Positions 5,401-61,000 of a stretch of 64,000 nucleotides of DNA are shown one piece after another. The notes under the pieces are model-generated. The model did no database searches and was not told the origin of the DNA. It was given only the letters and a program-made list of their open reading frames with translations. Positions within the stretch are counted from its first letter, which is position 1, and each line of letters begins with the position of its first letter. The translations under genes were made by a program, and so were the position numbers. This DNA is from Paraspadella gotoi (lineage: Eukaryota; Animalia; Chaetognatha), in NCBI GenBank assembly GCA_051294375.1, contig CM119269.1, positions 23,231,497 through 23,295,496 on the forward strand. The letters are read 5' to 3'.

Positions 5401-6075
5401 AATACTGACGACGACGATGAAGACGACGATGACGACGATGACGACGTTAACTACGACGATGATGATAACGATGATGACGACGACAACGATGACGATGACG
5501 ACCGGGACGACAGAGACGAGGACGACAACAATAAAGACATTGTAGTGGTAGTATTTCATACCCCGCTACTCGTCCGGGAATCAGCAGCACCTATGGCGCC
5601 GGAGGTAGCACGAGCTCCTCCCAACCCAAAGGACTCGGGTTCGCGCCCTGCTGATTCACACAAGTAAAATCGGGACGGGGCGTCTAACCCACCTGTAGTG
5701 TCGGACTACAGCCCGATCCGGCATCGTCTTCTACAACATCGATAAAGATGACAGTTATGACGATAATGACGACAACGATGAAAAAGCCGACCACGACAAT
5801 GAAGACGACGACGATGATAATGACGACAGCGACGACGACGACGACGACGACTACGAAGTCAGGATCCACGGAGAAAACTTTTCAACTCGAGGGAAAAAGT
5901 TGAGGGATTTTGAGGTCGAAAGGTGGAAGAAGAGAGAAGGGGGAAAGAGAGAGAGAGAGAGAGAATGGAATGGGTTTTCTTTGAAAAAAGATTCGTTTAA
6001 CCAGAAGAAACGAGACTTCATCTTCAGACAAACGAAAACATGGATTTTTGTTGTTGTTGTTGTTGTCGTTTCCCG

Positions 6076-6138
<63 letters not shown>

Positions 6139-7019
6139 CATCCACTGCTTCAACGCGAAATCTTGAAAATCTTTTTTCTTCATTTTCTCCCCGAATTTTT
6201 TTTCATCAAAATGCGGTGATCACGTGACTGGTGTGAATTCTTAAGTATCTTCCCAATTTTGTTGCTTGTTTTCTAAGACAGTTTCTTACTTGTTCTTTGC
6301 TTGTTACATGCTTGTATCTTTCTTTCTTTTTACTTTCTTTCTTTTTTTCTTTCGTCTTAAAATTTCTCAATTAGTTCTTTTACCTCCATTACTAATAGAT
6401 ACTGGATAATGGATAATGGATCATAGCATTAGACTTTTAACATTTTTTAAAGGCAACAAAAAATATATAACTATAAAAATAAGATTCTCCAACATGAAAA
6501 ATATACATTCATTAAAAAACTAAGCTATTTTTGCCCCCTGGATTTGGTCATGCAATAGTGGGTTATGGCTTCCATATAATTCACAAGAAAATAAACATAG
6601 CAAGTCCCTTCAACACTTTTTTTTTTCTTTTAATCAAAATTTTAAATCATATTTTTTCTTTATTTAAGTAAAGTTTTCTTTTTTCAATTTTTCTTTTCAT
6701 CTTTAAAATCGAACCATAGATCGGGAAGAAGAGAAGGAGAGAGAGAGAGAGAGAGAGNNNNNNNNNNNNNNNNNNNNNNNNNNNNNNNNNNNNNNNNNNN
6801 NNNNNNNNNNNNNNNNNNNNNNNNNNNNNNNNNNNNNNNNNNNNNNNNNNNNNNNNNNNNNNNNNNNNNNNNNNNNNNNNNNNNNNNNNNNNNNNNNNNN
6901 NNNNNNNNNNNNNNNNNNNNNNNNNNNNNNNNNNNNNNNNNNNNNNNNNNNNNNNNNNNNNNNNNNNNNNNNNNNNNNNNNNNNNNNNNNNNNNNNNNNN
7001 NNNNNNNNNNNNNNNNNNN

Positions 7020-17770: not shown

Positions 17771-17842
17771 CTTTGAAAAGAAGAAAAAGATGATCTTTTG
17801 TTCATAGAAGAATTTTCCGAACTTCTTAGATGTTAAATCAGG

Positions 17843-18347: not shown

Positions 18348-19632
18348 AACAGTTTGAAGTACACTACAAGCTAAATTAACAATCTTTACAAAACTTCCAT
18401 ACAGTTACATACAGTAAAGCAAAAACCTAAAATTATTTTTCTTTTAATTAGATTTTTAATTGAAATTAGTATTTTAATTGAAATGATTAGGTTAAGTTAA
18501 TGATGGATTAGTGATGGAGGTCTTAAACAACTAAAGACAGTTCCAAGTCAGGGGCAAGATAAATTATTCAGGATTAGGGATTTAAATTAGGGATAATTTA
18601 AATTAGGGTTTACGGTTTGGGATACGTTTATAAGTTAAAAAACTTATATAGGTCAAATATTAAAGTTAAATTCTGGGTTGAACAAACAGAAATGTCATCT
18701 CGTCTTCCTTCTCATTCTCTCTTTCTCATTCTCCTCTTCTTCCTACTCTTATTTCTTCATTCTTCTCTTCCTCCTCTTGCTCCTCCTTTCCCTCCTACTT
18801 TTCTTCCTCCTCCTTTTCCTCCTCCTTTTCTTCCTCCTCTTCCTCTTTCTCTTCCTCCTCCTCCTCCTTCTGTTTCTCCTTATCGTCCTCTTCCTCAACA
18901 TCCTCTTCCTCCTCCTCTTCCTGCTCTTTTTCCTCCTCCTCTTTCTCCTCTTCATCCTCCGCCTCATTCTTTTCTTCTTCCTCTTTCTCTTCCTCCTTTT
19001 GCTCCTCCTCATCTTTTCCTCCTCCTCCTCTTCTTCCTCCTCCTCTTCCTTATCCTTTTTATATTCCTCCTCTTCCTCCTCCTCTTCCTCTTAATTGATC
19101 TACCGAGATTAATATTTTCCTCCTCATTTATCACAAGAGACAAATTTGAAAAAGACAATTGAGCAGCAATAATGACGACGACGACGACGACGACGAATTC
19201 ATCGCTATCGTCATCATCATCATCATCATCATCATCATAAAAATCATTATCATCATCATAAATACAATCATCCTCATTAAAATCATTATCATCATCATCA
19301 TCATCTTAATCATCCTAATCATCATAAAAATCTTTATCATCGTCATAAATATAATCATCATCATCATTAAAATCATTATCAACATCATCATCTTAATAAT
19401 CATAATGATCCTTAAAATCTTAATCATTATCATCATATAATCATCATCATCATAATCTTCATTTCCTTATCATTTTCCTGCTTTTTCTCATCATGTATTT
19501 TAAGTTTTGATTAAATATATGAATAATTGTTTTATTAATAAATTTGATAAATTTGTTTACTTTTAAACTTTCCAAATTTGTTCTTTCATGCAAAACTATT
19601 CAATCTTTCAATATATGTCATTGAAAACAAAA

Positions 19633-31312: not shown

Positions 31313-33170
31313 ACTTTCTTTCCCTCTCTCTCTTCCTTCCTCTCTCTTTCTGCTACCCTCTCTACTTAGGCGGAACAGGTAACAAACTAACAGAAGTCCG
31401 GTATAGATATTGTTAATTAAAGATGTTTATTGTTTTTATCGTTAAAATATAGTTAAACGCATGGATACTACTATTTTATATTTTCTATATACTATATAAT
31501 GTCATTCTTATAAAGCTTGAAAAGTTAGATAAAGGTTTTATTATTTTGGCCCACCTTACTCTCTACTTCTTACTTTGTTCCCCTCTTCCTCTCTCTCCCT
31601 CTCCTTCTCCCACTCTCCCTCCTCCCTCTTCTTCTCTCCTCCTCCATCTCTTCCTTCTCCCTCCTCCCTCTTCCCTCACCCTCTCTCTTCCCGCTCTCTC
31701 CCTCCCTTCTCTCCCTCTTTCTTTCTCTCCCGCCCTCCCTTTTCCTCCTCTCCCCTCTCCTCCTCTCTCTTCTCCTCCCTATCTCCCCTTTCTGCCCCTC
31801 TCTCCCTCCCTCTCTCCCTCTCTCTCTCTCCCTCTCTCTCCCCCTCTCCCTCCCTCTCTCCCTCCTCTCTTCCTCTCCTCTCTCCGCTCCCTCTCTCCCT
31901 CTTTCTTCTCCCTCCTCTCTCCCTCTCTCTCCCCCCCCTCTCCTCCCTCTCTTCCTCATCCCTCTCTCCCCCACTCTCTTTTCTCTCTCTTCTCCCTCTT
32001 CCTCCTTCCTTCCTCTCCTCAAATCTCCGACGACTTCAACACTTCTCCCCGCTCCCTCTCCCTTCCTCTCTCCACGCCCACCTCTTCTGCGCCACGCCCA
32101 CTCGCTGCTTCGCCCCCGTCCGTCTGGAGACGACCTGGCGATCCGCCATCACCGCCTGTTCATCGGCAAAGCCTGTCTCTGGCCGCCTGGCGTCTCTAGA
32201 AAATGTTGAGGACGTTTGGTTCCTGGAAAAGAAAATGGCGAAGGAGACAAACTTGGCTGGAATGTCTTTTTGGGTGAGTGAAGGTCAGACTTTACAATGT
32301 TTTTAAATTTATAGTACTATATTTCTAATACTTTGCTTTATCTTTTTTAATTTCAATTATCATTTGCTAGCAACTCTCTATAAAACAAAAAAAATAGTTC
32401 ATTATAACCAGACTTGTCTTCAAGATCACAAAAAGTACGTTTCATCTTCCTTTTTTTGTATAAATTTCAGGCAATACTTTTTACCAAACAAATTTTAAAA
32501 GATTAAAATCAAATGTGATTTTTAATTTTTAATTAGGCTCAAATAAATCTTATTAAAATTTAAAATAAAAAATAATCTATAGGCTATTGAGTTTCAGAAT
32601 TTCTATATTTTAAAAATATTTAACAAGAAAGGAAAAAAGAAAGTGTAATAAGCTAACTAAATTTAACTTAGTCAAGGTAGTGGTCTTTTCATACAATTGA
32701 AACATTCTTAGAGCGAGACTCGGAGAGAGTCTTGATTGAAAGATTGCAGGGACCTGCTATGTCATTATCTTGTAAGAGTGATGGAGGCCTTAAACCACCA
32801 AAGCCTGTCCATTGTCCAAAATGAGGGGCAAGATAGCCAATTTAATTTTTATAAGGGTTGTACCAATTTCATAATAATCTACCCCCAGGTGGCCGGTCGT
32901 AAAGCAGCTTGGAGCCCTCAGTGGGCGTGGCCAATCAACGCAACGACGGAAACGACGATAGATGTCGCTGCATTCGACATCATAGACAAAGACGTAGACA
33001 GCATTTCTGAGAAATGCCTCTTCGCTGAAGTGGGCGTGGTTGACTGGGAAAGAGATGAAGATAACAACGGCGACGTCAGCTGGAAAGCGGCCCCCTGCAG
33101 CGGCTGGCGCGGTTACATCTGCGAATTCTCTTCTGATGTCACTGAACAGTTGAAGGAGCTGTGGACTTGA
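24301..33170 (+). CDS. Type-II membrane protein with three C-type lectin-like domains (paralog 2)
   Basis: Exons 24301-24346, 24433-24561 (TM ILLLFVILLFILT), 24626-24787, 24858-25004, 25081-25488, 30551-30713, 30794-30885, 31020-31120, about 32023-32273 (damaged acceptor/frameshift), 32889-33170. Intron positions and phases match paralog 1 through CTLD2 (GPPG|, GGYLATVDS, WRWFSNQRK, ICE.PNP). Confidence 0.85.
25799..26140 (+). CDS. Single-exon complete C-type lectin domain (cassette or nested-gene exon)
   Basis: AG|..G|GTCAGT, phase 1-1; KFDEARKVC..GAVIAMP..QIWLGIVD..FTFIDGS..YYW..C..W..C..KFVCQ. Confidence 0.85.
26432..27431. mobile_element. Foldback-type non-autonomous hAT element
   Basis: TAGGGCGTTG...CAACGCTCTA termini, 8-bp TSD CTAGATTT (26424-26431/27432-27439), imperfect inverted arms of about 400 bp. 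Confidence 0.85.
27544..28123. mobile_element. Tc1/mariner-type MITE (copy 1)
   Basis: TIR CTATCTAG..AAAGTATATGACA, flanking TA; homologous to 45918-46475. Confidence 0.85.
28596..29039 (+). CDS. F5/8 type C (discoidin/galactose-binding-like) domain exon
   Basis: AG|..G|GTAAGT, phase 1-1; ATSTAYHFSANNAF..GW..FPQTIWYKFKKAKRIVRFGF..SPQKIEFVASNDCGDWKVL..FFCYGIRV. Confidence 0.75.
29441..30261 (-). mobile_element. Internally deleted Tc1-like transposon
   Basis: TA-flanked imperfect TIRs CAGAT(AT)CTGGTCAAAA; ORF 30031-29849 resembles a transposase N-terminal HTH (KKAEIVNLLKAG..SLSAICRVV..GTRRP) and ends in stops. Confidence 0.7.
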
Positions 33171-33964: not shown

Positions 33965-36900
33965 ATCTATTCTATATAATATCTTCTCTCTACTAACTCC
34001 ATCTTTCTGATCTGTTCCTTCTCTCTCTCTCTCTCTCTCTCTCTCTGCTCTCGTCTCTCTCTCTCTCTCTCTCCTCCGTCTTCTCTCTCTCCCCTCTCTA
34101 CTCCTCTCTCTCGTCCTCTCTCTCTCCCTCGGCGTGGTATTTCCATTTGAAGCGGACCGGGCCCTCGGTTCCCACACAACGAGTCACGCGGCCAGCTCTA
34201 TGCTTCCGCCGTCTTCTGTCTCTCTCTCTCTTTCTCATCCACACTCTTTCAACACACCCAACTCTTTGTTCAAGCGTCGACTCTCGGTTCCTCTCTCCTC
34301 TCTCTCTCTCCGTCTCCTCTCTCTATCTCTCTCTCTTCTTCCTCATCTCATCATCGCCCCCTCTGTCCAAGATACCTTTAAGGCCGAAAAGTAATGGACG
34401 GGAGAATGAATGAGAACAGAGCGAGAGAGAGAGATAGAGCGAGAGCAGAGGAGGAGGAGAGAAACAAGAAAACGAGGAGATAGGAGAGGGGAGACGGAGA
34501 GAGTGACCGTCACTGTGGTTCTTCCAATTCAGTACGCGCCATATACATCCTCGGATTCCCGCTACCAACGAAGTAAATCTTAGCAATACAACGCCACTTC
34601 CCGACATCTACTCGGGATAGGCATACAAACAACATGTGCAAACAAAGGCGACTGCCCAAGCGAACTTCCATATCGTCATTTGTTAGCCGGTCGTTTTTAT
34701 AAAAAATTTAGATAATGTCAAACTAGATAAAAATACGTGATTCTTTAAGGAATCAAGTATTCGTTTGCCTAACAAGTATTTTCTAACAACAGAAGAACAA
34801 AAGAGATGAATGTTGTTATTGAAGCTCATGTTGCTCGTGAACGTAGACGTATTCTCATCCTTCTCCTCTGTTCAGTCTTTACCGTCCACAATTCCGGGCG
34901 CGTAGGCTGCTGCTCTCAGAGACTGCCTGCGCCGCGGCGCGTGTCTGCTGCGTCGCTGGGGCGAGCGTGTCGTCCAGGCGTCTGCGCGGCGCTCCGGGTC
35001 TCTCGTCTGCTCCGGCTCTCGCTCTCCAGTCTCTCGCTCTGTCTTCTGTCTCCTCTCTCGTCTCTCTCTTTCTTCTTTCTCTCCGTCATCTTCTGCCTGT
35101 CTCTTGCTCGATATTCCAATCAAATACGTGAAGAAAAGTTCCTGATTTCTAATAAATTATTTTGTGTTAGTAAACATCAACAGGTCGGAACGAACTGTCG
35201 TTGACAGGGGATGAAGCTTCTGTCAGGGTCATTTCCTTGTCACCTTTAAGGCTGCATATTTATTTTTGGTATGAAATTAAAATTAATAACCAACGTATCG
35301 TTGCCCCTGACTTTGTCGACAGTCTTGGCACTTCTTTAAGGGTTCCGCGTAGCAGAACGTGTGCAATGTTGAAACAAAAACGAACTCTTGTCCACTGATT
35401 GTTCGCAAGCGTTGTTACATACAAGATATTGAGATTAACTTTCTACCAACAACAACAAATTAGGGGCCGAACCGAAGGATTTGTTAAAAACATCTCCACG
35501 CGGTTTCGTAATGATAAAATGGACCATTGGCCCACTTTTAGCCAAAAAAATTATGTCCAGTGTTTTGTCCATTTTTACTGTACAGACTGTCTGATGCTTT
35601 GACATGCAGGGGGGAAAGGAGACATTGAGAAAAACAAGATTTAAGCTTTCGGAAATCCGGTTACTTTCTTAATCGTTCTTTTACCTGCTGGGTAAATTTA
35701 TTAGCTTAGAATCATTTATAGTTGTGCCTATGAATTACAGTTCTTAAAGTTAACAAGTCGAAAACATGTGTTGCACGTTGTACTTCAGTCTTGTATCTAT
35801 AATTTGTTAAAAAACAAAAATAAATCAAAATGGTTGAAATTAAACGAAATTATAGTCCATTGAGATAAGCTTTTTAGGACACCTATAAATTTAACTCAGA
35901 TAAAAAAAATTTTCTGGTGGTGTCAGCGTGCGGTACGGGAAGCACCAAATAATTTTTTAAAGACGTCTTTTAATTTGATGGACTTTTTTGGTGATTGCGA
36001 TTATTTTTGATAAAGGAGGAATATTTCTCACAGTCATTTATTAGTTGTAAAAAGATGAGGGTCATACTGACCCTTGATTAATAGAAAAAAGAAACCCGCT
36101 TCCTTTAATTCCACTGGAAAGGCATGCAGGCACTTGGTTTTTTTTTCTGCACAAATCGAGACAGATTTTGGCGGGGAAATTTGTTGTCCACGGCAAATCT
36201 GTCGCATTACTCAATTGCTAGTCAACCAAAAATTGAAAGCAGCGAATCATCTGCGTACCACCCGTTGATTTGTCTTTCTTATACATGGATTTTAAATATT
36301 TCTTTGTATTTAGCTCAATTAATCGTAGTGAGAGCAAAAAATAGGAAAAGGGGAAACAAGCAAGGAAATGGGAGAGAAATGAAAGAGAGGGTGGAAAGGC
36401 CAGATAAAAAAAGGTAGGAAAATGGGGACAAATAGTGAACATATTGTACAGGTAGAGAAGAAGAGGGGAGAAAATGGAAAGAAAAGGGAAAAAAGGGAAT
36501 GAATCGAAAATGAGAAAAAAAGAGGTAGGGAAAGTGGCAGTAGTGAGGAAAAAGGTAGGGGCCAAGAACAACGGATAAGTGCCACTAGCGGTGAGAAGTA
36601 AGGAGGAATAGTAGGAAGGAAGGAAAATTAAAGTTAAGCAGAAGAAAAGAGGCAAAGAAAAATCTTATAGGAAAGCGTATGCAAAGGAAAAAATTGTATC
36701 AGAGTAATGTGGCGTCGTTGATCCTGAAAATGCTTGTTGGTGTAAGTGTGGATTTCGCGACGCACAGGCGGCTCCCGGCCGTCGAGGTAGAAAGGAGACA
36801 GAGCGATCTTTATAAGGATTTCGATTCTTTAAAAGACCATCTGTACGCATAAGAATTCAAGCATTGCACTTTCTTTCTAAATTAAGCAGCTTAAGAGATT

Positions 36901-39900
36901 AGGTTTTGAACAAGCATTGAAGAAATCATGTCTTCTACCGGTCGTTCGTTTTGTAACTCATAGAAATTTACCGCTGGGAAATTCTAAGTGATAAGAAGGG
37001 AGATAACTGTGAGACTACCGGGTGTTTTTTAAAATGAAGAAAAGCTTCGTACTAAACGCCAAATTGAGATGAAGAAATATTGTAAGATTATTGAATGTTT
37101 CTTAGATCTTCGCGGTTGTCTAAAAGACACTGATTTGTAGTGCGAAACGCTTAAGCCTTCATCACTTTACAGAGACAATGACATAGAGCAGTTTCGCCTG
37201 CAAGCTTTCAATCAGACTCCCTTCAGCAGTACTGCGTATTGATTGCTAGTTCATAATAATAATAAGTGAGGATAATGGAATACGGATGAGTATATGAATA
37301 AGTAATAATACATACAATCATAATAAGTTAATAATAATGAATGCAATAACTAATAATAATTAATAAAAACCGAAAATTCTCTGCTGTTAAACTAATAAGT
37401 CATCTTTTTCTATAATAGTTTTTTAGAATGATTCTTTGCTAACTAACGGCCAAGTACGTTTACAAAAGAGCGCCGCCATGTTAAGATCTTAATTTAAAAA
37501 ATGTAGTAGGTTATAAAGGTATCGATTACAGGTTAGAGCTCAGGAAGAAGTTAGTTTTTAAGGGAATTTTGATTAACAGATTTGGTTAACAGTTAGTAGT
37601 TTGGATAGGAGATTTTTGATAGGGATAGGTTGGTAAGGGTTGATTGTTTAGGGTTAAAAAGAGTTGTGATTTGGATAAGGCGTTTAGGTTAAGGAATTAT
37701 GGTTTGCTTAGGAAAGTCTAGGAATTGGATTAATATATGTTAAGATAAGGGTGGAGGAATGTAGGTGCTTATCCTATTTTTATCTGTTCGTTTCTGCCTT
37801 GTGTGTTTCGTGGATTCCATTGGGCTGATTTCGAGACGGTTCTGTGCGCCTAGGGGAGGGCCCGACCGTCACACTCGACTCTCCTCTCGTGAAGTTTGCT
37901 CTCTCTCCTGTCTTCTCTCTCTCGTCGTCTCTCCTGTCGTCCTTGCCCTCTCTGGTCTCCGTGCTAATGTGTTCTGTCGTCCTCGTCTCGGCTCTTCGTC
38001 TCCTCGGTCTCCCTCCGGTCGTGGCGTCGATTCATAACGTGTGATTTTTGCAAATGCGACCGCCCGAATTAGGATTTAGTATTAGGCCTGGATCAGACGT
38101 TGTAGAAGATTTTGGGATGGAACAACAGCAGGAACGCTCCTTGGGCTTGCAGGAGGGACGAGAGGGAGAGAGATGGAGCTGGAGGGGTAGAGAGAGACGA
38201 GAGAGGGTAGGAGCAGAGGAGAGAGGAAGAGTCAGGCGTTAGAGCAGGAGGAGCGAGAGAGAGAGGCGTGTGTGGTGTCGATTTGCGCCTTTAATCTGCT
38301 CGTGTTTATTGTGTTTGCTTGCCGTCTGCCCTACCCTGGAGCTAAATCTTTTGTGTCTATTCTCTGAAGGTCACCCAGCGGAAGTGGTCGGGCTGACGGG
38401 AATCACTTTGTTGATGAGGGTTTTGCATCTATGCACTACATCAGTCGCGCTGCATGGTCATCCACTCTGATCACTCGGTCTCTAGGTTTAGCTGCGCATT
38501 GTAGCGACTACGATAGATCATCGAACTCCATGGCTGCACGCTATCGACATCGCCATGGATAGTGACGCATATTCAACATCGACCGTCCATGATGGTGCGT
38601 TGTGGACCATGGCGGCTCAGCGTATGCAAGACGAACCCTCAACGGAACATGCGATTCTCGGAGTAGGGTCCATCAGATTAGCTCACTTGGAGCCATCATC
38701 AGAAGAGTTTTGATCCTAGTGGCATAGAGCCGCATCAGTAGACGATAATCCACTTGACGTCATCGGCTGATCATCACTCATCCATGCTCATGCAGGCATG
38801 CGATACTTGATCATCATCATATCAGTCATCTGCATAGGATCGATCTATGGCATCTTGCATCCGCAGGTATTGCGCAGCCGGCGTCTGTGAGACTTATAAG
38901 TGTGGCGCTTCTGGGTTTTGCCGATCCTCATGTAATGTCAGGAGTTTATCCTTTGAGATTTCAATGGTCGCGTGATTTCCTGGTGACATGTGTAAGTTTT
39001 TCGTTAGTTTAAAGTCTATGTAGAGTATGGCGAATGAGATCGTTTTTCCAGCCAGGAGGTTACTCGGGTGGTTAGTGCGTGGGGGGGTGTGGTGTGTTGC
39101 GGTTGTTGGTCGGGACGTTGGTGGTGTGTTGGGTGTGGGGTGGTTGTTTTGTTGTTTTGTGTGGGGTTTTGTTGGTGGTTTGTGGTTGTGTGGTGGTTGG
39201 CTGTTTGGTGGGGGGGGTGGGGGGTGTGAGGGGGGTGGGGTTTGGGTTGTTTTGTGGTGGGGTGGAGTTGTGTAGTTGTTGCGGTGTGGTGGATGTGCTT
39301 GGGCCGCAGCTGTTTAGGGTGGCCGTCGGCTGCCGCGGTGGGGCATGGCACTGTGCTTGCCGCTAGCTGGTTTTCTTCGCACTAGCCGACGCCTCCGCTT
39401 CCTCTTCAGAGTGAGTTGTGACCGTTGCCGTAACCCGAGCAGAGGCGCGTGCAGGCCGGAGCACTGGGGCCGGGTGGGGGCGGGGGAGGTGGCGGGTGGA
39501 GTAACGCTATGGAGGGTCAACGTTTAGGTGGGGGCCTGGCTCGTGCGTTCCGTGGGGTAGACCGAGTGCTTGTCCGCCACTCTCACTCATCCACCGGGGC
39601 GCGCAGAGGATCGTGCGCGCGCGGGCTGTGCCGGGAGAAACTGAGGCCATCGGTGGCGTCTCATTGCGGATAGAAGCTCGGAGCAGGCGTCTGCGCGCCA
39701 TGTATGAGCGCCCCGTTGGCGGCAGCAGTCGACCACGTACAGGCTTTCTGGGCTTCGTAATTGGACAACTCCATCCCATATCGCGTGTACGTCCGAGGCG
39801 GTCTACGCCTGCGTGTCTGTCCTGCGGCGAAGAGCCGTCTGAGGACGAGCTGGGCCGGTAGAGACCGCCTTGGGCGGCGCTGGACAAAGAACAGACCTCA

Positions 39901-42900
39901 AGTCCTGTGGTTCAACAGCCAGGACGTTCCACATGTTTGCTGAGGGCGTAATGAGGAATTACGGATAGTTGGTCCAATCGGTTCTGGTTTCTTACGTGCG
40001 GCCTTGCCCTGCGAGCAGGGCCACCTTAGGCGCCTTATCGCAGCAGGTATGCTAGATCGTATGGATGATACGTTTACCTCTGGTAGTCTGCCGCTTACTT
40101 GAGTGTCGCGGCAGTGTCCCACGTTTCACAATCTGGGTTATGTTTACTAAGATCACCAGCCTAGATTCGTTTTCTGACTGCGAACTTTTGGATCAACAGC
40201 CCTTTTTGCTTTTTAAAACCTAAGATTCCGTCTTTTATTCTGCATACTCGTGCATACCGGTGCGCACGTGAGTCTCTACTTTAAGGCTTTTCTTCTGGTA
40301 CGAAGAGTACAGTCGTATAACTTTTTCGTTGTTAGCACGCGTTCCTCTGTCTCAAGCTGTCCCTTTCTTCAATTGCGCCTTATTTCCAGAGAAAGTTAAA
40401 GAATTAGATTGAAATTAAAGAAGTTATTTGTGATAAGGGTTAGAGGTTAAGAAGTTAGGTTATAAATTACTCTTAATACTAATTAAAAGTATTGCTAGTA
40501 AACCGCTACGAAATATGTATGTAAAATGAGATTGAAGATCAATATTAAAAATTAAAGCACACATTTGTAATATCCCGGGTGCTGCCGGGTGCGGCGGGGG
40601 CTGGGTCTGGTGCTTGTATTGTTGTATACAAGGGTAAAATGTAAAAATGTAAAAAAATGTAGAAAAGGAGACAAGGAAATGACAATCCAATAAGGAAAAA
40701 GTCTACAGCAATGTTTTGNNNNNNNNNNNNNNNNNNNNNNNNNGAGAGAGAGAGAGAAAGAGAGATAGAGAGAGAGAGAGAGTGACGTCACTGTGTGTCT
40801 TCAATTCAGTACGCGCCATATAACATCTCGGATTCCGCCTACCAACAAGTAAATCTTACAAACGCCATTCGACATACGATGCCATACAACATGTGGCAAA
40901 CAAAAGATGCCAGCGAACCTTTCATCGTATTTTTAACCTTTTTTAAAAAATTTAGATAATTCAACTAAATAAAAATATTCTTTAAACAATATCTTTCTAA
41001 AATATTTTAACAACAGAAGAAAAAGAGAATGAATTTGTTATTGAACTCAATGTTGCGTGAACAATTTATCTCTCTCTCTCTTTCTCACTCACTCTCTCTC
41101 TCTCTCTCTNNNNNNNNNNNNNNNNNNNNNNNNNNNNNNNNNNNNNNNNNNNNNNNNNNNNNNNNNNNNNNNNNNNNNNNNNNNNNNNNNNNNNNNNNNN
41201 NNNNNNNNNNNNNNNNNNNNNNNNNNNNNNNNNNNNNNNNNNNNNNNNNNNNNNNNNNNNNNNNNNNNNNNNNNNNNNNNNNNNNNNNNNNNNNNNNNNN
41301 TCTCTCTCTCTTTCTTTCTCTCTCTCTCTCTGTCTCTCTCATTTCAATGCAAATTACGTGAAAGAAAATTCCTGATTTCTAATAAATTATTTTTGTGTTA
41401 GTAAAATCAAAGTCGGACGACTGTGTTAAGGGGATGAATTCTTCAGGGTCATTTTTACTTTACTGCTATTATTTATTGTATGAAATTAATTAATTAAACA
41501 AACTATCTTGCCCCTGACTTTGGACAGTCTTTGGTCCTTTTAAGGTTCCGCGTACAAACGTTGCATTTAGGAAAAAAACGGACTCTTTCCACTATTGCTT
41601 CCAATGTCCATTGTTACTTACAATATGATTAAACTTTCTACCACAACACAAAATAGACCGAACGAAGGCATTGTTAAAACATCTCCACGCGTTTCTAATG
41701 ATAAAAATAGGACCATTTTGCCACTTTAGCCAAAAAAATTATGTCCATTTTTGTCCATTTTACTTACGACTTCTGAATTTGAATGCAAGGAAAGTGAGAA
41801 AAAATTTTTATCTTTTGGAAAATCCAGTTCTTTTCTTATCTTCTTTACCTCTGGTAAATTTTATTAGGCTTAAATCATTTATAGTCTTGCCTATGAATTA
41901 ATTTTAAAGTTAACAAGGTCAAAAAAGTTGCAGTTTCAGTCTTTATCATAATTTTGTTAAACAAAAATTAAAATCAAATTGGTGAAATTAAACAGAAAAT
42001 ATAGCCCTATTGAATTAAGCTTTAACACCTATAAAATTTATTCAAAAAACTTTTTCTGGTTTAGCACAAATAATTTTTAAAGACGTCTTTTATAAATTTG
42101 TGGACTTTTGTGACTTGCCATTTTATTTTTTGATAAAGCAGAAATATTTTTCAACTCATTTTCATAGTTTTAAAAGATGAGGTAACATACTGCACCTTTG
42201 ATTTATATAAAAAAAAACCGCTTCCTTTTAATCCACTAGGATAAGCATCAAGGACTTGTTTTTTCTTCAAAATCGACAGCATTTTGCGAAATTTTCCGCA
42301 AAATCTGTCGATTTACTTAAAATTTGCTAGGCAACCCAAAATTGAAAGAAAAATCATGCGCTACTTTGATTTTCTTTCTTATAATGCAATTTTAAATATT
42401 TCTTATTGATTTTGCCTCAATGTAACGTATGAGTGAGAGAAAATAGGAAAGGGGAAAACAAGAAAAGGCAGAAGGGAGAGAATGAAGAAGAGGTGAAATG
42501 GCACCAAAAAAAAGCCAGAGCAAATGCGGAGAAAAAATAATGATGTGAATACAATGTGTAAGGCTAAGAAAAGACGGGAAAAAATGGAAAGAAAAAAAAG
42601 GGAGAAAAAAGGAATGAAATGAAAATGAGGAAAAAAAAGGTGAGGAAAGTGCTATGCAGTGAACCGAAAAAGGTAGGGCGCCAAAAAAACGGTAAGTGAC
42701 AGCGTGAGAAGTAAAGGAGGAAAGAGGAAGAGGAAAATAAAGTAATGAGAAGAAAGAAGAGGCAAAGAAAAATTATCAGGAAAGCGTATCATCAAAGGAA
42801 AAAATTGATCATTATAAGTGGCGTCTTACCTTAAAATATTGTTGTGTAAGTGTAAAAGACGATGCAGGATTCTTATATAGGAATTCTCGATTCTTTAAAA

Positions 42901-43307
42901 ATATCTATCTGTACCATAAAATTCAAGGCATACTTTTTTTCTAAAATATAAGCAGTTACATAGATTAAGATTGACAAGCATGAAGAAATCATGTCTTACC
43001 GTGGTTTTTTAACTCATAGAAATTTACCTGGGAAGCTTCTAAATGATAAGAAGGAAGGATAACTTTGAGACACCCGTTTTTTTTTTTTTTTTTAAATGAA
43101 AGGAAAGCTTCGCTTAACTAACAATGAGATCAAGGAATATGCGTAATTATTGAAGGTTCAGATTTACGTTGCTCTAAAAAGACGACTTGATTGATATGCG
43201 AAACCTTAAGCCTCCATCACTTTTACAAGACAATGACATAGCAGTTCCCTGCAAGCTTTCAATCAAGACTCCCTCACAGTCTCGTTTATTCAATAATAAT
43301 AATAATG

Positions 43308-43386
<79 letters not shown>

Positions 43387-43819
43387 CCGAAAATTTCTCT
43401 GCTTTAACTAATAATATCTTTTTTATAATAGTTTTTTATTTTCTAGGCAATATTTACAAAAAGCGCCCCATTTTAATCTAAATTTAAAATTAGTTAGTTT
43501 TTTTAAGTTTAAAGATTCGATTAAAGGTTAGAGTCAAGAGTTAGTTTAGGGATTTGATTAACGATTTGGTTAAAGTTTAGTATTTGGGATAGAGATTTTG
43601 GATAGGGATTAGGTTAAGGGTTATGTTTAGGTTAAAAAGTTAGTGATTTGGATAGGGTTTAGGTTAAGGATTATGGTTAGGTTAAAAGGTTAGAGAATTG
43701 GATTATATGTTAAGGATAAGGGTGAGGAATTAGGTTATACCTTTTTTATTTTCTTTTCTTTGTTTCTGATCCCATTGGGCTGATTCAACGGTTCTCGTCC
43801 CTGGAGGCCGACGTCACAC

Positions 43820-43892
<73 letters not shown>

Positions 43893-43999
43893 ATCTCTCT
43901 CTCGATTCATTGATTTTCATCGAACCGAATTAGATTTAGTTTTACCTCAACTTGAAAAGATTTGGGATGGAACAAAGAGAACGCCCCTTTGCGAGAGAG

Positions 44000-44039
<40 letters not shown>

Positions 44040-44272
44040 GTGTGTGTGATTGCGCCTTAATTCTGTTTTTTTTTCCGCTGCCCTATATATTTTGTTATTT
44101 TGAGGTACCCTTTTTCATCATCACAATCATCATCGATCATCATCATCATCATCATCATCATATCATCATCATCATAATCAACAACATCATCATCATAATC
44201 AACAACATCATCAGCATCATTATCACCATCATCAACATTATCATCATCATCATCAACATAATCATTATCATT

Positions 44273-44313
<41 letters not shown>

Positions 44314-44441
44314 TTGCAATCCCATATGTGCTTCGGTTTCCATTAAAGTCAGTTTTCCTTTGAGATTCAGGTGCTGATGTAAATGTTAAAGTTTTTCGAT
44401 TAGTTAATGTAGAATGGAAGAGATTCACAAGTCGGTGATGC

Positions 44442-44711
44442 TGTAGTCGGGCATTGCCTAGTTTCACCCCTCTTTCAGTTGTGACCCGGTGGCTCATTGA
44501 GTAAAGCCATCAGCTCATGACCACTAGGTACTGGGTTCAATCCCAATCCGGTACCTACCCTGCGGGAAGAGTGAGGACGGCCGTAAGCCGCCTTGGGGGC
44601 GTGGCAAACCCTCAAGCCTGGTTCCAAGCCCAGGACCCGTTCCATGTTTGCTAGAGGGGGTTATAGAAATTACGGATAGTCATCTTCTGCCCACTTAGCG
44701 CCTTATCCACA
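44442..44711 (+). mobile_element. Solo LTR of tRNA-promoter/twister TRIM family
   Basis: TG..CA, TSD ATGC (44438-44441/44712-44715), A-box TGGCTCATTGAG, B-box GGTTCAATCCC, twister-like motif downstream. Confidence 0.8.
44562..44640 (+). ncRNA. Type-P5 twister-like ribozyme
   Basis: P5 GCGGG/CCCGU; GA-GGA pairs with UCC of L4 UUCCAAGC; U^AA at 44584; GCC; P3 UUGGGGG/CCCUCAA; P4 CCUGG/CCAGG. Confidence 0.75.
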
Positions 44712-45439
44712 ATGCTGATGTTGATACTGATGTTCACATCTGGTTATGTTTCTAACTCCAGCCTAGGAATTCGTGCGATTTTGGATCAACTCTTTTTTTA
44801 TTTAAAATCCTAAGATTCGTTTTTATTCTGCATACTCGTGCATACCGGTGCGCATAGTCTCTAACTTTATTTTCTTCTGGTACATCGTATAACTTTTTCG
44901 TTGTTCCACGCAGTTCCTTGTCTCAAGTGTCCCTTCTCTTCAATTGCGCCTTATTTTCCAAGAAATTAAAGATTAGATTGAAATTAAAGAGTTAGTTTGT
45001 GAATAGGGTTAGAGGTTAGAGTTAGAGTTATAAATTACTCTTAAATTACTATTAAAAGTATTGCTAGTAACCGCTACAATATGTATGTAAATGAGATTGA
45101 AGATCATATTTAAAATTAACCACACATTATGTAATATCTTGTATTGTTGTATACAAGGGTAAAATGTAAAAATGTAAAAAAAAATGTAGAAAGGAGACAA
45201 GGGAAATGACATCAATAAAAATCTACAGCAATGGTTTGATATTCTAAGAGAGACAAGAAAAAGAGAGAGAGAGAGAAANNNNNNNNNNGAGAGAGAGAGA
45301 GAGAGAGACGACCCCATCTAAAAGGCTTCCTTGTTTCTTTTTTTTTCCTTTTCTCAAAAGAGAAAAAGATTTCGTGGCGAAACTGAGATTCATGATATCA
45401 TGAGATATGAAAATGCATCTCTGTTTCTCTCTCTCTCTC

Positions 45440-46475: not shown

Positions 46476-46908
46476 TATAGTATATTTGTTGACAACAAGT
46501 AGTTGAATCAATACGTCCAACATTTCATACACATACAAACAGATAATTCATAAATTATAATGTTTTACAATTTAATAAGCAAACAACTTCATCATTGTTG
46601 TGTCTAAATCTTATTAGACGATATTATTTTTAAATAATAAAACAAATTATTAATCAGTTATTTTTTTAGAAAAATACTTAGTAGAAGAAGGAGCTAATTC
46701 AAATAATAATTTGAATATTTTAAGCATCTGAATTAGTATTCGTGTAATTACAATGGCTTCCACATTTGTTTGTCTTGTAGTCATGGCTTCCACGGTTTTC
46801 TTTCTCGTTGTCATGGTTTCCACAGTTGTTTACGTCGCTAACGACTGCCATTAGTCTCGTTCTTAAATTCTCTCTTCTTTTTTTTGTGACTCAAAATTTG
46901 TTTCTCAG

Positions 46909-47555
46909 TATGGTGGACTAAAAATCCACCAACCGTTCATCAGCGGCCATTGGTGCCGGAGGCAAGTCATTCGCCTCCCAACCCAAAGGTCCGGGGTTCT
47001 AGCCCGGTGGTTAAGAGGGACGGGGCGCTTAACCCGCCTGTAACATGGTGTTACAGCCTGATCCGAAGCTCAGGGACTGCTTATATTGAACGGTTCTGTC
47101 ATTAACACTTATCAATAATTACTGTCTCTTCATTGGTGAGCCCGACTTCCGAACACAACAGCAACAACAACACTTTCAGGCGACAGGCCTCAACCTGGCA
47201 ATGCACTTTCCGCCCACAACACATCAGGCGACATGCCTCTACTTGGTGACAAACTTTCCATCAACAACAACAATTCACTGAAGAGACGCAACAGACTTCT
47301 CCCTACGGGAGGGGGGGATGTATGGTCGACTAAAAATCCACCAACCATTCATCAGCGGCCATTGGTGCCGGAGGCAAGTCATTCGCCTCCCAACCCAAAG
47401 GTCCGGGGTTCTAGCCCGGTGGTCGTCTGGCAGTTAAGAGGGACGGGGCGCTTAACCCGCCTGTAACATGGTGTTACAGCCTGATCCGAAGCTCAGGGAC
47501 TGCTTATATTGAACGGTTCTGTCATTAACACTTATCAATAATTACTGTCTCTTCA
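46909..47555 (+). mobile_element. TRIM (miniature LTR retrotransposon) A with tRNA-like promoter and twister in each LTR
   Basis: LTR1 46909-47132 (lacks initial TG, 11-nt deletion), PBS TGGTGAGCCCGAC 47134-47146, PPT GGGAGGGGGGGA, LTR2 47319-47555 (TG..CA), TSD TCAG. Confidence 0.88.
47430..47503 (+). ncRNA. Type-P5 twister-like ribozyme (LTR2 of TRIM A; partial copy 47011-47080 in LTR1)
   Basis: P5 GCAGUU/GACUGC; GA-CGG pairs with CCG of L4 UCCGAAGC; U^AA at 47453; P3 UGUAAC/GUUACA; P4 CCUGA/UCAGG. Confidence 0.78.
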
Positions 47556-48569: not shown

Positions 48570-49924
48570 TAACAAAAACTCAAATTCGATTTTTTTTTCA
48601 GATTCATACGAAATTTAAAAAAAAAATGTTTGAAAAAGTGCGGGGGGCCTTTGTTGGAAAAAACTGCCACAGGAACTAAACTGCTACTCGACAAAACCAA
48701 AAAAAAACAAAACCCAAAAAAAAAAGCTCAAAAGTGCCAAAAAACAAAACGAACATAAGAAAAACAACTACCGCTCCCTTCTCAAAAAACATTCCTAAAA
48801 TGTATAGGTAAGTGTCAATTTTATAACTTCATACAACAAATATGAAAATTATATATTCATTTAATGAATATGCAATTTTTCCCTGCTGACTTTGGAGAGG
48901 CTATAGGTTTAGGCCTCCCCCCTCTTATAAGATGATAACATAGCATATCATAGCAGGACCTTCTTGTAAGAAGATAACATAGAATATCATTGCAGGACCC
49001 TTTTCTCACAGTCTTGTTGAAGAACTGCTGGAGTAAAGAGCTTCCCTATTAATGAAGTGGTGTAATTTTTTTATAGTCTTAAAAATGTTTAAATTGACCA
49101 TAAAAGGAACATCCGTATGAGCTTCAAACAAAAAAGGACAACAAGCCTTGATAATTACTGCAAGGATTCCATCGTGATAAAAGGTCTCCCTTTGGGCCGC
49201 AGTAAGGGGCAGTGTCCATGGGAGCGACCCGAGTGAGCAGCAGTTTAAAATTCTTAAAAATTGGTCCTAAGGAAAACTTGTTTTATAGCTTTGTGGTGTT
49301 ACCCTTTCAGATATTCCCCCGGGAGCAATAAATAATTTAATTTTCATGGTTAAACCGAGTACCCTTAGGGCCCATACCTTCCCCTAGGAGTCACCCATCC
49401 AGCTGCCCCCCTCCCAGGGCGGTGCCTTTTTTGAGCGACGTTATATCTCAATTACTGAAAGCGTCTTTTGTTTTTGTCGGCAACGACGTCGTTTCCTGAA
49501 TCGGCTGCCGCCATCCTCTGACTTAATCTCGCGTTTTCTCATTTTCCAGCGAACACATTATGGCGATTTCTTGCATCATCTGTCTTATCGCTGTCGTCGT
49601 TACCACCTGGACACTGCTCATCGTTATGGAGGTCAGAGGAGAGGGTGGAAGGGGGAAAGAGGGAGGAAAGAGGGAGGAAAAAGAAAAGGAAGAAGGAAAG
49701 GAGTGAAAAGGGAAAGGGGAAAAAAAGAAAATGAGATAAAAGGAAAGTCAGGGCAAAAAAGAATGACAAAGGAAAAGGGAAAAGAGGAAGGATTAAAAGA
49801 AATGAGTTAAAAGGAAAGGGAAGGAAAAAAGTAAAAAGGGGGGAAAAAGGAAAAGGGAGAAAAAAAAGGAAAAGAAGAATAAAAGAAATAGAGAAATTGT
49901 TCAATCATTCATTCATTCGTTATT

Positions 49925-50550
49925 TCCCTCATTCATTCACTACAGGACATTTAATAATTTCCCTTTCATTCACTACAGGACATTTAATAATTTCCCTTTC
50001 ATTCACTACAGGACATTTAATAATTTCCCTTTCATTCATTACATGACATTTAATAATTTCCCTTTCATTCACTACAGGACATTTAATAATTTCCCTCATT
50101 CATTCGCTACAGGACATTTAATAATTTCCCTTTCATTTGCTACAGGACATTTAATAATTTCCCTCATTCATTCACTACAGGACATTTAATAATTTCCCTT
50201 TCATTCGCTACAGGACATTTAATAATTTCCCTTTCATTCACTACAGGACATTTAATAATTTCCCATTCATTCACTACAGAACATTTAATAATTTCCCTTT
50301 CATTCACTACAGGATATTTAATAATTTCCCTCATTCATTCGCTACAGGACATTTAATAATTTCCCTCATTCATTCGCTACAGGACATTTAATAATTTCCC
50401 TTTCATTTGCTACAGGACATTTAATAATTTCCCTTTCATTCGCTACAGGACATTTAATAATTTCCCTTTCCTTCACTACAGGACATTTAATAATTTCTCT
50501 CATTCATTCACTACAGGACATTTAATAATTTCCCTTTCATTCACTACAGG
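49925..50550. repeat. 33-35-bp minisatellite (TTCATTCACTACAGGACATTTAATAATTTCCCT), about 18 copies
   Basis: Direct tandem units visible. Confidence 0.9.
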
Positions 50551-50848
50551 TGATTCCCATCAGAAGGGCTATGACTCGGGCCTTTGAAGAAGTAAGAAAT
50601 GCACAGGAGGGAAATTCTGGAGGAGGAGGAGGAGGAGGGGGAGGAGGGATAGGATGAGGAGGAGGAGGAGGAGAAGGAGGAATAGGATGAGAGGAAGAAG
50701 AAGAAGATTAAAAGAAGGTGAGAGGCTTTCTTTTCCGAGAGTGCCCCATTTATGTTTTAATTTATTTCAGAGTTTAACTTTGACATTTAACATAAATATA
50801 TTTTTTAAACTTATAACCCAATCCTTAACCATAATTATTATAATTATT

Positions 50849-50945
50849 AAAAAATTCAACTAAATTCAGAATTTAAGAGTAGACGGGGCGTTCTAAGAAA
50901 ATAAGGCCCGTCTACTCTTAAATTCTGAATTTAGTTGAATTTTTT
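50849..50945. repeat. Perfect 39-bp inverted repeat with 19-nt spacer
   Basis: 50849-50887 is the exact reverse complement of 50907-50945. Confidence 0.9.
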
Positions 50946-51796
50946 TTTTAGTTTTGAGATTATGGTTATAAGTTAGAGTTGCGTTATAATTATGAATTAG
51001 TGTCAGAACTTAAGTTTAGGGACTGGGCGATAAGTTAGATTTTGGTTAGATAATGGTTTGATTATAGTTTAATTACTGTTCATTACCATTACATATTAAA
51101 GTTAAATTTAATTTCAGATATGGGGCGCTTTTGGGAAAGAGAGTCAACTCTTATTTGTTTTTAACAGGTGCTAAAAAATATGACCTGTTCACATTGTCGT
51201 TTTTGTAATGAATTCAACAATGACTACAAAAATAAACTACGGCCAAATTCACCAGTTTATTTGGATCACCGTGTAGCCAACGGTTAAGGTTACACTGACG
51301 TATGCAGTTTCTGCTTTTAATTGTAAGACTTTTTGTTTGAGAACTGACCCCATATCTGACCTGATCTGACCTCAGCATGATCTATGACCAGTTTGATCTG
51401 ATCTGACCTGATCTACTTTAACTAACTCTCTATCTCTCCCTCCGAGGTTCCCCACCAATATGTGTCTTGCAGTTCTTGTCTTGCAGTTCTTGGCCCGAGT
51501 TCATTGACTGTCATTAGTAGCGGACCTTAGCTTGAAGAATACTTTGTATCCAAGTTTGTGGACTCTCCTTTGACCACATTATTCTAATTTGTGGATCCAT
51601 TTGTGGATCTAATTTGTGGTCCGAACCCAACAGTTTTGAGGTCATTGAAACGATAAAACGGCATCGAGATGCAGGATTATGTATCCGAATAAAATGTACA
51701 TCAAGACTTTGTCAAATTTGGAATTTGTTTTGTTTAAGATTTTCTGCTTAAAGAAACTGATTAATATGGGAAATGGCTTATTTGTTATTTATTTAT

Positions 51797-58026: not shown

Positions 58027-61000
58027 TCAAGGCAATCCCGCAGGATAATGCTGAATATAAGGCTTGGGCACTTTTTGTACCTCCTCCGCCGGTCGTGACC
58101 CAAGCTTTAACAATCTGGCCTGTTCCTTCTCAAGCTGAGTCAGCTTGTCCCTCTCGGCTCTGACCCGCTCCTGTTGCCGCTTCAGTCCTAGTAGCAACTC
58201 CTCCCTCTGTGTCTGAGCTTGCTTCAGTTCAGCCCTCATCTGCTGGTAGTGCACTTCCAGCTCCTCTTCTTCCTGGCTACACTTGATCATCTCGTTGTTC
58301 AGGTGCTGCGAGTTCTGCTTGTGCACGTCCTGGAGCAGGGCGCCCATTTTGTTCAGCTCCTGTTCTTCCTTGCGACAAACTCGCTCCACTTCCTTCACAG
58401 CGGCCGTCAGTTCCTTGGAGGAGAGAGAGAGAGAGAGGTGATTGGTTAAGATAGGATTCTTCATCATCATCATAATTATCATCATCATTTTTATTATCAT
58501 CATCATCATCATCATCATCATCATTATCATCATCATCAACTATAAATCAATTACATTATTTCGGCTTTATTTTCTCAGAAAGCCGGAATTTAATTTTAAT
58601 CTTAATATTTATAGAAGAGTTGAAATGGATTCAACAACGATTTTCTTGTTCAAGCCTTCATCATGCTTGAACAAGAGCCGAAACATTTCCGTTATTATTA
58701 TTGTTTCAAATAAATCATTGTTGTCTGGTGGTCCTATTGTAGATTCGAACCCGAGATTAACGATCCACTCGGATCCATGCTAACTGATTAGCCATCTCAG
58801 ATTGATATATTTCTTATTTTGAAACTTCCTTATTATCAATTAAAATCATTTTAAAACTAGACAAATGAACAACCTATTTTTCAAGCAAATCAGCTGACTC
58901 AAGAGAAACTAATTCTTTAGTTCTGCTTGGAAAACAATTTCACTTAATCACAATTTAGTAACTCAACTGGAACCCATTATCGTTACTAATTTATTACTTA
59001 TTAATTATTTATGATGTTTGCCATTTTACTTGTTATTAATTTAATAATTAATTGATTGATTTATTTTGCTGTTTAGTCATATAGATATTGTAATTGCTTG
59101 ATGATAAAGCAATGGAATATCTATATGCTTTGATTATTTTATTAAGGTTGCTTTTTATTCATTAACCAAGCAAGTTGGTTTAAAAGCTTTTAATTCAAAG
59201 CTTGTAAACTTTGCAATCATTCCGAGATCCAAGACGCTCGTCAACTTCGTTGGATGACGCGCCACCTCAAAGTGAATTCAGGCCGCGCCATCTACACTAT
59301 CACCACAGATGGATTAAAGCTGTTTCTTTCACAGCGCCTCAGTGGCTCAGTGGACTAATGCACCATCCCAATGTGCGTCCCTGGTTCGAGCCCTGAGGTT
59401 GTCATGTAGAAAGTGGGATGGACCGGGTAACCCGCCTGTAGGCATGGGCCTACTGCCAGATCCAAAGCTCTGGACTACATGAACATGCTGTCTCGCTGTC
59501 GCCACGAGGTGACACCGCTGCGGGTGTGGCGCCCTGTAAAACCAGCCTCTTCAATGGTGAGCCCGACGTGATCCCGAACACGCAACCCGGCTGATAATAC
59601 TCCTCTGCCCTTGATGTGGTTTGAGCTACACAGCTGCACTCAAAGCAGGGCCACCAGAATGAAGAGAGGTTCAGCGGAGAGACATGCGCTTCATCCCCCT
59701 GCTTCGTACTCTCATATGCGAGAGTCCTGGGGGGGCTGTCTGGTGGTCCTATCACCACAGATGGATTAAAGCTGTTTTCTTTCACAGCGCCTCAGTGGCT
59801 CAGTGGACTAATGCACCATCCCAATGTGCGTCCCTGGTTCGAGCCCTGAGGTTGTCATGTAGAAAGTGGGATGGACGGCGGGTAACCCGCCTGTAGGCAT
59901 GGGCCTACTGCCAGATCCAAAGCTCTGGACTACATGAACATGCTGTCTCGCTGTCGCCACGAGTGACACCACCGCTGCGGTGTGGCGCCCTGTAAAACTC
60001 AGCCCTCTCAGTTGAATCCATTTCAAACTCGTCTCTAAATCTCAACCACAACGAAACAAAAGGATTATAATATCTAATCTTAATATTTACAGTATATAAG
60101 GTGATAGACAGACGCGGGTCTATTACCCCCTCCTTCTCATTCACCTCCTCTTCATCCTCCTCCCAGGGATTCGGGGCCGCGTTCACGAGATTCAGTTCAC
60201 CTTTCTCTCTTCTCCTACTCGTCTCTCTCCCTTTTTTTACCCTCATTTTTGTCTTCATATAGATTTTCTTTCCATCAATATATTAGTTTCCCACATTCTC
60301 GTCACTTTACTTCCGGTTAGGATACCTTTTCAGAGATTTAACCTAAACCTGTGTTTAAATTTAAAACTCAATCAATTACCCTAATCTAAAATTTTAACAT
60401 TATCTTAAACTCAAAACCTGAATACTTATCCATAATTTTTAACCCTAACCCCTAAACATAAACTTCTGTCCCTAACCCTAATTCCTAATCATAATTGCTA
60501 ACCTCATCCCTAAGAAAAATTATAAACCTAATTAATTAATCCCTAACCTTAACTTTAACCTAGTTCCCAATTAAAGATAAAATGGGTCGTTCTTGGAAAT
60601 TAATGCTTTTCTTCTCACCTTCTCCACAGTCTCTCCTTTTTCCACAGCCCTCATCACGTGATTGACATGGTCGTCATGTTCCCTAAACTTGGCGTGGAGA
60701 TCCCTGCGTTTGAAATCCTCCAAGGCCCTGGCTTCCTTGGCATCTCTCTCTTTTCGTCTTCCAGCCAACTCGCTTGTCCGCGATTTGAGGCGTCGCTTTG
60801 AGTGAAGTTCGATCTCCGTCTCTAGGGCGACCTCTTTGAAGCGGACCTTGGGAAGGGTAATACATCATTTCATTTACGGTTATTAGTTACTATTTATAAT
60901 TAATACTAATATATTATTGTAAAAATGATTTAAAATTATCTTAAAGACTTTTTTCTTTGGCACAACCAAAATTAAAAGATTTTTTTTTAATTAAAAATCC

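Follow-up and report, generated by a model that had tools for sequence, protein, structure and literature searches.

Does a twister-like ribozyme in which a 6-nucleotide (nt) palindrome stands in place of the P1 hairpin require a second copy of itself to cut? The question is raised by a 64,000-nt stretch of the genome of the chaetognath Paraspadella gotoi (assembly GCA_051294375.1, contig CM119269.1, positions 23,231,497 to 23,295,496 of the forward strand; hereafter, the window), in which the long terminal repeats (LTRs) of short retroelements contain such a fold. A preliminary description of the window had proposed that P1 forms between two ribozymes, for example the two LTR copies of one transcript, so that only full-length RNA is processed. 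The copies are assigned here to families C, A, B, D, and E, whose linkers begin at 44578, 47447, 59422, 5679, and 32785, respectively (Table 1).

The linkers were found where they had been claimed, all on the forward strand: CGGCCG in a solo LTR of family C, GGCGCU in both LTRs of a family A terminal-repeat retrotransposon in miniature (TRIM), GGCGUC in a truncated copy of family D, and ACCGGG in LTR1 of a family B TRIM. The single exception that had been noted, the 8-nt sequence ACGGCGGG in LTR2 of TRIM B, was also read in its place. At all listed loci the linker stands between the T1 strand and UAA, and in family C it is flanked by a G-A-GGA segment and UAA. As had been claimed, the linkers are too short for a stable hairpin, one base pair closing a tetraloop being predicted to cost 1.3 kcal/mol (family C) or 3.9 kcal/mol (family A) relative to the open linker, and they are self-complementary, with predicted self-duplex energies of -10.7, -8.3, -6.3, and -8.1 kcal/mol for the four window linkers. 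The observation of a palindromic linker is confirmed.

Around the linker, the three intact families C, A, and B have the circularly permuted strand order of the type-P5 twister, with P5, P3, and P4 all formed. The T1 pseudoknot has all three base pairs in each family, its top pair differing from one to the next (G-C, C-G, and U-A in C, A, and B), and the 2-bp T2 pseudoknot is intact. The catalytic positions (G-A, and the U^A-A of loop L1) and the conserved L4 bases are present in all three, and by column majority in family E. A twister pattern that placed no demand on the linker matched ten times in the window, at five loci (several parses for some), and not once in 100 shuffles. In the family D copy the fold is broken, with T2 altered, L4 cut off, and the conserved bases not kept.

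Two helices depart from the type-P5 twister: the P1 stem-loop is replaced by the 6-nt linker, and P2, rather than four base pairs, has three with one bulged nucleotide (A, A, and U in C, A, and B), as had been described for three subfamilies and as is also found in E. Against the Rfam Twister-P5 model (RF02684), family C scores 16.3 bits, under the gathering score of 37.6; Rfam scans of the whole window, and of A or B at E values up to 10, gave no twister match, and no hammerhead match was found in scans of the window and families. The altered P1 and P2 place the fold beyond the Rfam model. It is a real twister-like variant in P5 order, and by score, P1, and P2 it is not a member of RF02684. 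In pseudoknot-free two-dimensional models the pairing probability of P2 is near 0 in all three window cores, compared with 0.2 to 0.98 in six phage controls.

Is the palindrome more than chance? Six distinct linkers are available: those of C, A, D, B, a diverged relative of B, and E. Seventeen of their eighteen self-pairs are canonical, and the centre pair is Watson-Crick in every one (G-C twice, C-G four times). Since the centre pair cannot form within one strand, its consistent Watson-Crick state counts for pairing between copies. The sole broken pair is the outer one of family B, which suits a duplex frayed at its ends better than a small hairpin; inner pairs are never broken. All three inner tetramers composed entirely of G and C (GGCC, GCGC, and CCGG) are palindromes, with a chance of 0.007 if they are independent, and composition-keeping permutations gave 0.014 for C, A, and B and 0.0025 with E added. 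Among 41 offsets around the linker, self-complementarity occurs in all four families at offset 0, the linker register, alone. The linkers AUCGGU (B relative) and AGGCCU (E), found after the hypothesis had been fixed, fit it. As about 12.5% of 2,654 GC-rich 6-mers from the window pass the inner-four test (self-complementary, with a Watson-Crick centre), a single palindromic linker means little. In our judgement the linker has probably been selected to pair between copies.

The rest of the fold has been maintained as well, the top pair of T1 differing among C, A, and B and T2 being compensated in E. For comparison, 18 canonical twister loci in viral contigs were considered, of which eight, having the P5 order and all four P2 pairs, were retained; the other ten, with P1-type or unclear parses, were dropped. 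The canonical P5 twisters comprise six distinct sequences, all with P1 hairpins of 17 to 23 nt and a 4-bp P2. The linker-agnostic pattern matched no locus in the viral contigs. Candidate short-linker relatives (13 metagenome, 5 prokaryote-genome, and, with a looser pattern, 17 viral loci) form at most three of the five P4 pairs in all 35 cases and were set aside as chance. A role of the linker as an off-switch that pairs with the downstream P2/T2 strand was likewise rejected: the registers differ, and the misfolds are no better than those of permutations (fractions 0.4, 0.52, and 1.0).

The 8-nt exception in TRIM B carries a 2-nt insertion relative to the family majority and is predicted to misfold into a 6-bp hairpin over the cut site. 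A linker insertion at a frequency of 2% or more was not seen among the family B contigs, 400 from run X1 of the same organism and 19 from run X9, which may be an RNA run, and the deepest X9 contig over the family B site (99 nt) has zero differences from LTR1. The exception is probably a private insertion of TRIM B LTR2. One 3,622-nt X9 contig holds the diverged relative, with 15 differences over 84 nt (window 59392-59475). Its linker AUCGGU, inferred from variant rows, is changed at positions 2 and 6 and retains all three self-pairs; of the 135 double changes possible, nine would yield complete self-pairing. All six scorable changes in this relative miss the eight core positions (P=0.06). The contig may come from a host transcript or represent an autonomous partner. 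Family A is far more abundant, with 18,565 aligned contigs in run X1 compared with the 400 of family B; linker variants are absent among 40 of its 86 variant rows. Run X10 contained two contigs matching family A, and runs X12 and X13 none matching family B. In run X1, most variant positions of family A are C>T changes (23) or G>A changes (21), the pattern that decaying methylated CpG sites would produce.

Family E came from the linker-free scan, which matched the locus at 32780; its profile score is E=0.004. The column majority of seven copies (an eighth, with an internal deletion, was excluded) has complete P5, bulged P2, T1, T2, and P4, and lacks P3. Its T2 is changed on both sides to AC/GU, a compensated change, and its linker majority is A7/7 G5/7 G6/7 C6/7 C5/7 U5/7. 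Copies of this family (at 6521, 18504, 21183, 32675-32840, 41492, 43206, 48870, and 61319) have a common 3′ end directly after the fold and a variable 5′ end, and no LTR pair was seen for them within the window. A stop-free frame runs through some copies; it has no Pfam match and no homologue among longer proteins, and a representative search gave two repetitive proteins only.

The elements that carry families A and B are classed, by structural definition, as Helenus-type TRIMs. They are 647 bp (A) and about 715 bp (B) long, with LTR pairs 94.5% and 96.5% identical, respectively, and no open reading frame of 150 amino acids was found across them. Compared by eye with the tRNA-Trp site in Fig. 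S2 of PMC10886601, the primer site matches at 17 of 18 positions in B and 12 of 13 in A. A 4-bp target duplication is present for TRIM A and for the solo LTR of family C; none was found for TRIM B, whose LTR1 has an altered 5′ end. Directly upstream of the ribozyme fold in the LTRs of C, A, B, and D lies a tRNA-like head with A- and B-box-like motifs; ARAGORN called no tRNA in the window. TRIM A is free of runs of four T from the LTR1 head to the end of LTR2, and TRIM B has one, which differs between its LTRs. The predicted cut sites are 423 nt apart in A and 455 nt apart in B. LTR1 of TRIM A is missing 11 nt, the P5 5′ strand among them. It begins TATGG without the TG of LTR2 (window 46905-46912). 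In three runs the consensus rows of loose ends likewise lack a clear TG ahead of this start, so the whole family may have lost it.

Table 1. Positions of the twister-like folds, their linkers, and the elements that contain them; positions are those of the window.
Feature	Position	Strand	Remarks
6-nt self-complementary linker CGGCCG, family C	44578..44583	+	replaces P1 hairpin; between T1 strand and UAA
Twister-like fold, P5 permutation, family C	44562..44640	+	P5, P3, P4 formed
P2 3′ strand, family C	44569..44572	+	
GA, family C	44573..44574	+	
T1 strand, family C	44575..44577	+	followed by the linker
UAA, family C	44584..44586	+	followed by P2 5′ strand, T2 GC, P3, P4
L4, family C	44622..44629	+	
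Predicted cut, family C	44584/44585	+	
Solo LTR (TG...CA), family C	44442..44711	+	4-bp target duplication ATGC on either side
tRNA-like head, family C	44490..44543	+	A-box-like 44490-44501, B-box-like 44534-44543
TRIM A	46909..47555	+	LTR1 46909-47132, LTR2 47319-47555, target duplication TCAG
TRIM A inner parts	from 47134; 47307..47318	+	tRNA-Trp-type primer site; purine tract
Linker GGCGCU, TRIM A LTR1	47024..47029	+	predicted cut 47030/47031
Intact twister-like fold, TRIM A LTR2	47429..47504	+	linker GGCGCU 47447-47452, predicted cut 47453/47454
TRIM B	59297..60010	+	LTR1 (5′ end unmatched) to 59553, LTR2 59737-60010
TRIM B inner parts	59555..59572; 59729..59735	+	tRNA-Trp-type primer site; G tract
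Intact twister-like fold, TRIM B LTR1	59402..59482	+	linker ACCGGG 59422-59427 (family majority), predicted cut 59428/59429
8-nt linker ACGGCGGG, TRIM B LTR2	59875..59882	+	2-nt insertion relative to family majority
Truncated family A-related LTR (family D)	5541..5720	+	tRNA-like head, broken twister-like fold, linker GGCGUC 5679-5684
Family E, best copy, decayed twister-like fold without P3	32767..32834	+	linker AGGCCU 32785-32790, bulged P2, T1 UGG/CCA, 7-nt duplication in L4
Family E, second copy	18498..18561	+	linker AGGUCU
Family E, decayed copy	near 21270	+	
Family E, decayed copies	48900, 41500, 6545, 43206, 61328	-	
Viral type-P5 twister controls	eight loci in viral contigs		

What is seen directly is a fold with covarying helices and a self-complementary linker of constant 6-nt length, and, in TRIMs A and B, a layout with two LTRs. 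In the reading that we favour, at about even odds, these features reflect partner-assisted cleavage: the linker would pair with that of a second copy and rebuild P1 in a strand-swapped double twister. RNA polymerase III would start at the tRNA-like head of LTR1 and read through LTR2, and a linker would probably find its partner in the second LTR of that transcript. The two ribozymes would exchange halves in a nested fold, each pairing its 5′ half with the 3′ half of the other; each active site would be built from both copies, the 6-bp linker duplex would be their shared P1, and cuts would follow at both U^A sites. When the unmodified TRIM A transcript was modelled under a P2-swapped constraint, linkers 1 and 2 formed all six pairs, nested.

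A lone copy with a weak 3-bp P2 would be slower under this mechanism. A fast lone copy would cut before LTR2 had been made, so that selection on the palindrome would imply a slow monomer, and the near-zero pairing probability of P2 fits such slowness. Two cuts would release a unit of 423 to 455 nt that a host ligase could circularise, and the circle might be reverse-transcribed by a Gypsy-type partner, as extrapolated from Helenus and the plant retrozymes (PMC10886601, PMC4918200). The circle junction would equal LTR sequence, and a cut in LTR2 only would yield a normal R-U5-U3-R template. The strict form of partner dependence, with the twister switched on only by the strand swap, two-LTR transcripts cut and circularised, and thousands of solo LTRs silent, strikes us as doubtful; it is likewise only a tentative suggestion that the palindrome device of the Penelope hammerheads evolved separately here and spread between unrelated mobile elements.

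Several points weigh against partner assistance. The linker lineages share ancestry (GGCC in C and E, GGCG in A and D, A-CGG in B and its relative), so the palindrome probabilities overstate independence; two double changes, one of the centre pair and the other of pair 2-5, bear most of the weight. In family B, which is homogeneous, the outer pair is A.G, leaving a core of only 4 bp; the linker of its relative is known from variant rows rather than direct sequence, and its duplex is predicted to be weak (-3.1 kcal/mol). The copy at 44578, for which dimer activation was originally proposed, is a solo LTR without a partner in cis. In the energy models, with misfolded dimers counted, the gap per ribozyme is 6.6 to 7.6 kcal/mol for dimers and 6.6 to 9.3 for monomers, the real linkers do not stand out from permuted ones (fractions 0.13-0.45), and the whole transcript, swapped minus local, gives -0.5 (A) and +3.2 (B), both with damaged copies. 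Phage controls with flanks, in the same energy model, give 1.8 to 8.6 as monomers. A first comparison, which favoured the dimer (gap 1.1-2.4 vs 7.0-9.3 kcal/mol), had ignored misfolded dimers and was overturned once they were counted. Known twister biochemistry, finally, implies no need for a partner: P1-less twisters cleave at near wild-type rate (PMC5408937, PMC6154101), and in the CHiTA survey of natural twisters the length, energy, and imperfections of P1 were without effect on cleavage (PMC11662667).

The proposal of a dimer-activated ribozyme therefore survives in part. Its component of palindrome selection and pairing between copies is strengthened by the extra linkers AUCGGU and AGGCCU, by the private nature of the exception, and by the register test; the dimer requirement, that only full-length RNA is processed, is conjectural, and the energy models do not decide between dimer and monomer. 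The tolerance of twisters to P1 shortening, which had been offered in support of dimer activation, points the opposite way (PMC5408937, PMC11662667). The precedent that had been invoked, of palindromic-stem hammerheads acting as dimers, is borne out by the literature (PMC4209133, PMC6765202, PMC7229834).

The alternative that survives best is that each copy cuts as a monomer, the linker being a shrunken P1 (a closing pair with a tetraloop, or an open tether) and the palindrome a combination of G/C-rich hairpin leftover and chance. A closing pair in cis would explain the changes of the outer pair (C-G in C, A-U in E) equally well, but the outer pair, which this explanation most needs, is the one broken in B, whereas the inner pairs are always kept, and leaving the linker open is predicted to be more favourable than closing it with one base pair. 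The reported dispensability of P1 in twisters favours monomers (PMC6154101, PMC5408937, PMC11662667), although the published P1-less constructs, according to reviews, had truncated free ends and no 6-nt tether (PMC5408937). Chance is helped by the roughly 12.5% of GC-rich 6-mers that pass the inner test, and the energy models, again, show no dimer advantage; set against these are the long P1 hairpins kept by canonical P5 twisters. We regard purely monomeric cleavage as rather unlikely.

It appears improbable that the palindrome was selected for non-catalytic pairing between RNAs, with cleavage remaining monomeric, either for dimerisation of the genomic RNA during packaging in helper particles or for holding cut ends together for ligation. 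Retroviruses use 6-nt palindromic dimer-initiation loops. Such pairing would account for the covariation without any conflict with the dispensability of P1, and cleavage would leave the linker at the free 3′ terminus of the unit RNA. The palindrome, however, lies exactly at the position of P1 and is fixed in length, and it also occurs in family E, for which no LTR pair was seen in the window.

That the fold no longer cuts, being a captured relic whose structure is kept for RNA stability or 3′ end protection or is merely inherited, is a very remote prospect: the absence of Rfam twister matches for A and B, the 16.3 of 37.6 bits for C, the low pairing probability of P2, and its three rather than four pairs (a review mentions a suggestion that changed P2 length may disturb the active site) would fit it, but C, A, and B keep the catalytic positions and both pseudoknots, T1 is compensatory and the T2 of E compensated, the scorable changes in the B relative avoid the core, and P2 imperfections were tolerated in CHiTA (PMC11662667).

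Other features of the window were recorded in passing. The window has about 35% G+C and is rich in microsatellites. A block of 4 to 6 kb occurs twice (34508-40574 and 40786-45138) with 74-82% identity and many small indels; its first copy resembles uncorrected long-read sequence and contains, near 39840, a garbled version of the family C LTR. This version, which duplicates the 44578 region with many indels, was left out of the counts. Decayed fragments of family C LTRs lie at 21449-21518 and 9850-10020 (both on the minus strand), with the ribozyme absent or too damaged to parse. A long inverted repeat at 50826-50968, with partial matches at 17842, 18610, and 20245, is possibly a small DNA transposon, and tandem arrays at 49889-50568 and 62457-63218 have repeat units near 33 nt and 90 nt in length. 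An 82-codon stop-free frame at 32922-33170, acidic and cysteine-rich, is perhaps a host exon and has no Pfam match.

If partner dependence holds, this would be a dimer-dependent twister, a form not met in the open-access literature searched, and it would overturn the working rule of P1 dispensability for at least one natural twister. Two ribozyme classes would then have converged on a palindromic helix for sensing copy number, and a small RNA switch with two inputs would be available. With a monomeric ribozyme, too, the element unites a Helenus-type polymerase III TRIM with an LTR retrozyme, two kinds not found together in the literature examined, and the fold is a twister variant missed by Rfam. 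Neither a dimer-dependent twister nor a twister in a TRIM was found in the open-access literature searched, subscription papers lying outside its scope. The available sections of PMC10085705 report no new twister permutation. For the Naiad elements, no canonical hammerhead is reported in those of PMC8557442, and 30 of the 39 motif matches in its supplement, considered on one strand, included no clear twister.

How does the fold compare with known systems? With the type-P5 twister (RF02684, clan CL00120) it shares strand order, conserved L1 and L4 bases, and both pseudoknots. It differs in having a 6-nt palindrome where all six phage examples have a P1 hairpin of 17 to 23 nt, and a P2 of 3 bp with a bulge instead of 4 bp, P3 being present in C, A, and B. 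Another retrotransposon twister with a weak or missing P1 is the T-variant at the 5′ ends of Perere-3/RTE elements (PMC8501958, PMC7761336), but it is of the P1-type permutation, lies at the 5′ end of the element, and has its P1 completed by flanking DNA; the strings "dimer" and "palindrom" have no matches in the available text of PMC8501958.

The host elements resemble the Helenus TRIMs (PMC10886601) in their two short LTRs, tRNA-like A/B-box head, tRNA primer site, and purine tract, and in the 4-bp target duplication found in animals, a length below 1 kb, and the occurrence of solo LTRs; a Trp-type primer site occurs in wasp Helenus (PMC10886601). They differ by the twister-like fold that follows the tRNA-like head. 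The main text of PMC10886601 does not contain "twister", "palindrom", or "dimer", and a search of its supplement with six L4 motifs gave two unrelated matches, though line breaks may hide some.

Plant LTR retrozymes (PMC4918200) are similar in carrying a ribozyme in each LTR, in being non-coding, in their primer site, purine tract, and 4-bp duplication, and in that two cuts would free a unit-length RNA. Their defining hammerhead in each LTR is replaced here by the twister-like fold; they have a type III hammerhead and a tRNA-Met primer, whereas the chaetognath elements have a tRNA-Trp primer and an internal tRNA-like promoter, and circular RNA has been demonstrated for them and is only predicted here (PMC4918200). 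The closest parallel to the linker is the short stem III of the type I hammerheads of Penelope-like elements and amphibian retrozymes, which also place a short palindrome beside the cut site and occur as tandem copies in each transcript (PMC4209133, PMC7229834, PMC6765202). Those ribozymes belong to another class whose stem III is needed, whereas twister P1 is reported to be dispensable, and their dimer dependence has been demonstrated, whereas the palindrome described here is known from its sequence. The double hammerheads are drawn with active sites built from both copies around a shared stem (PMC4209133), the same arrangement that a linker duplex would give to a strand-swapped double twister.
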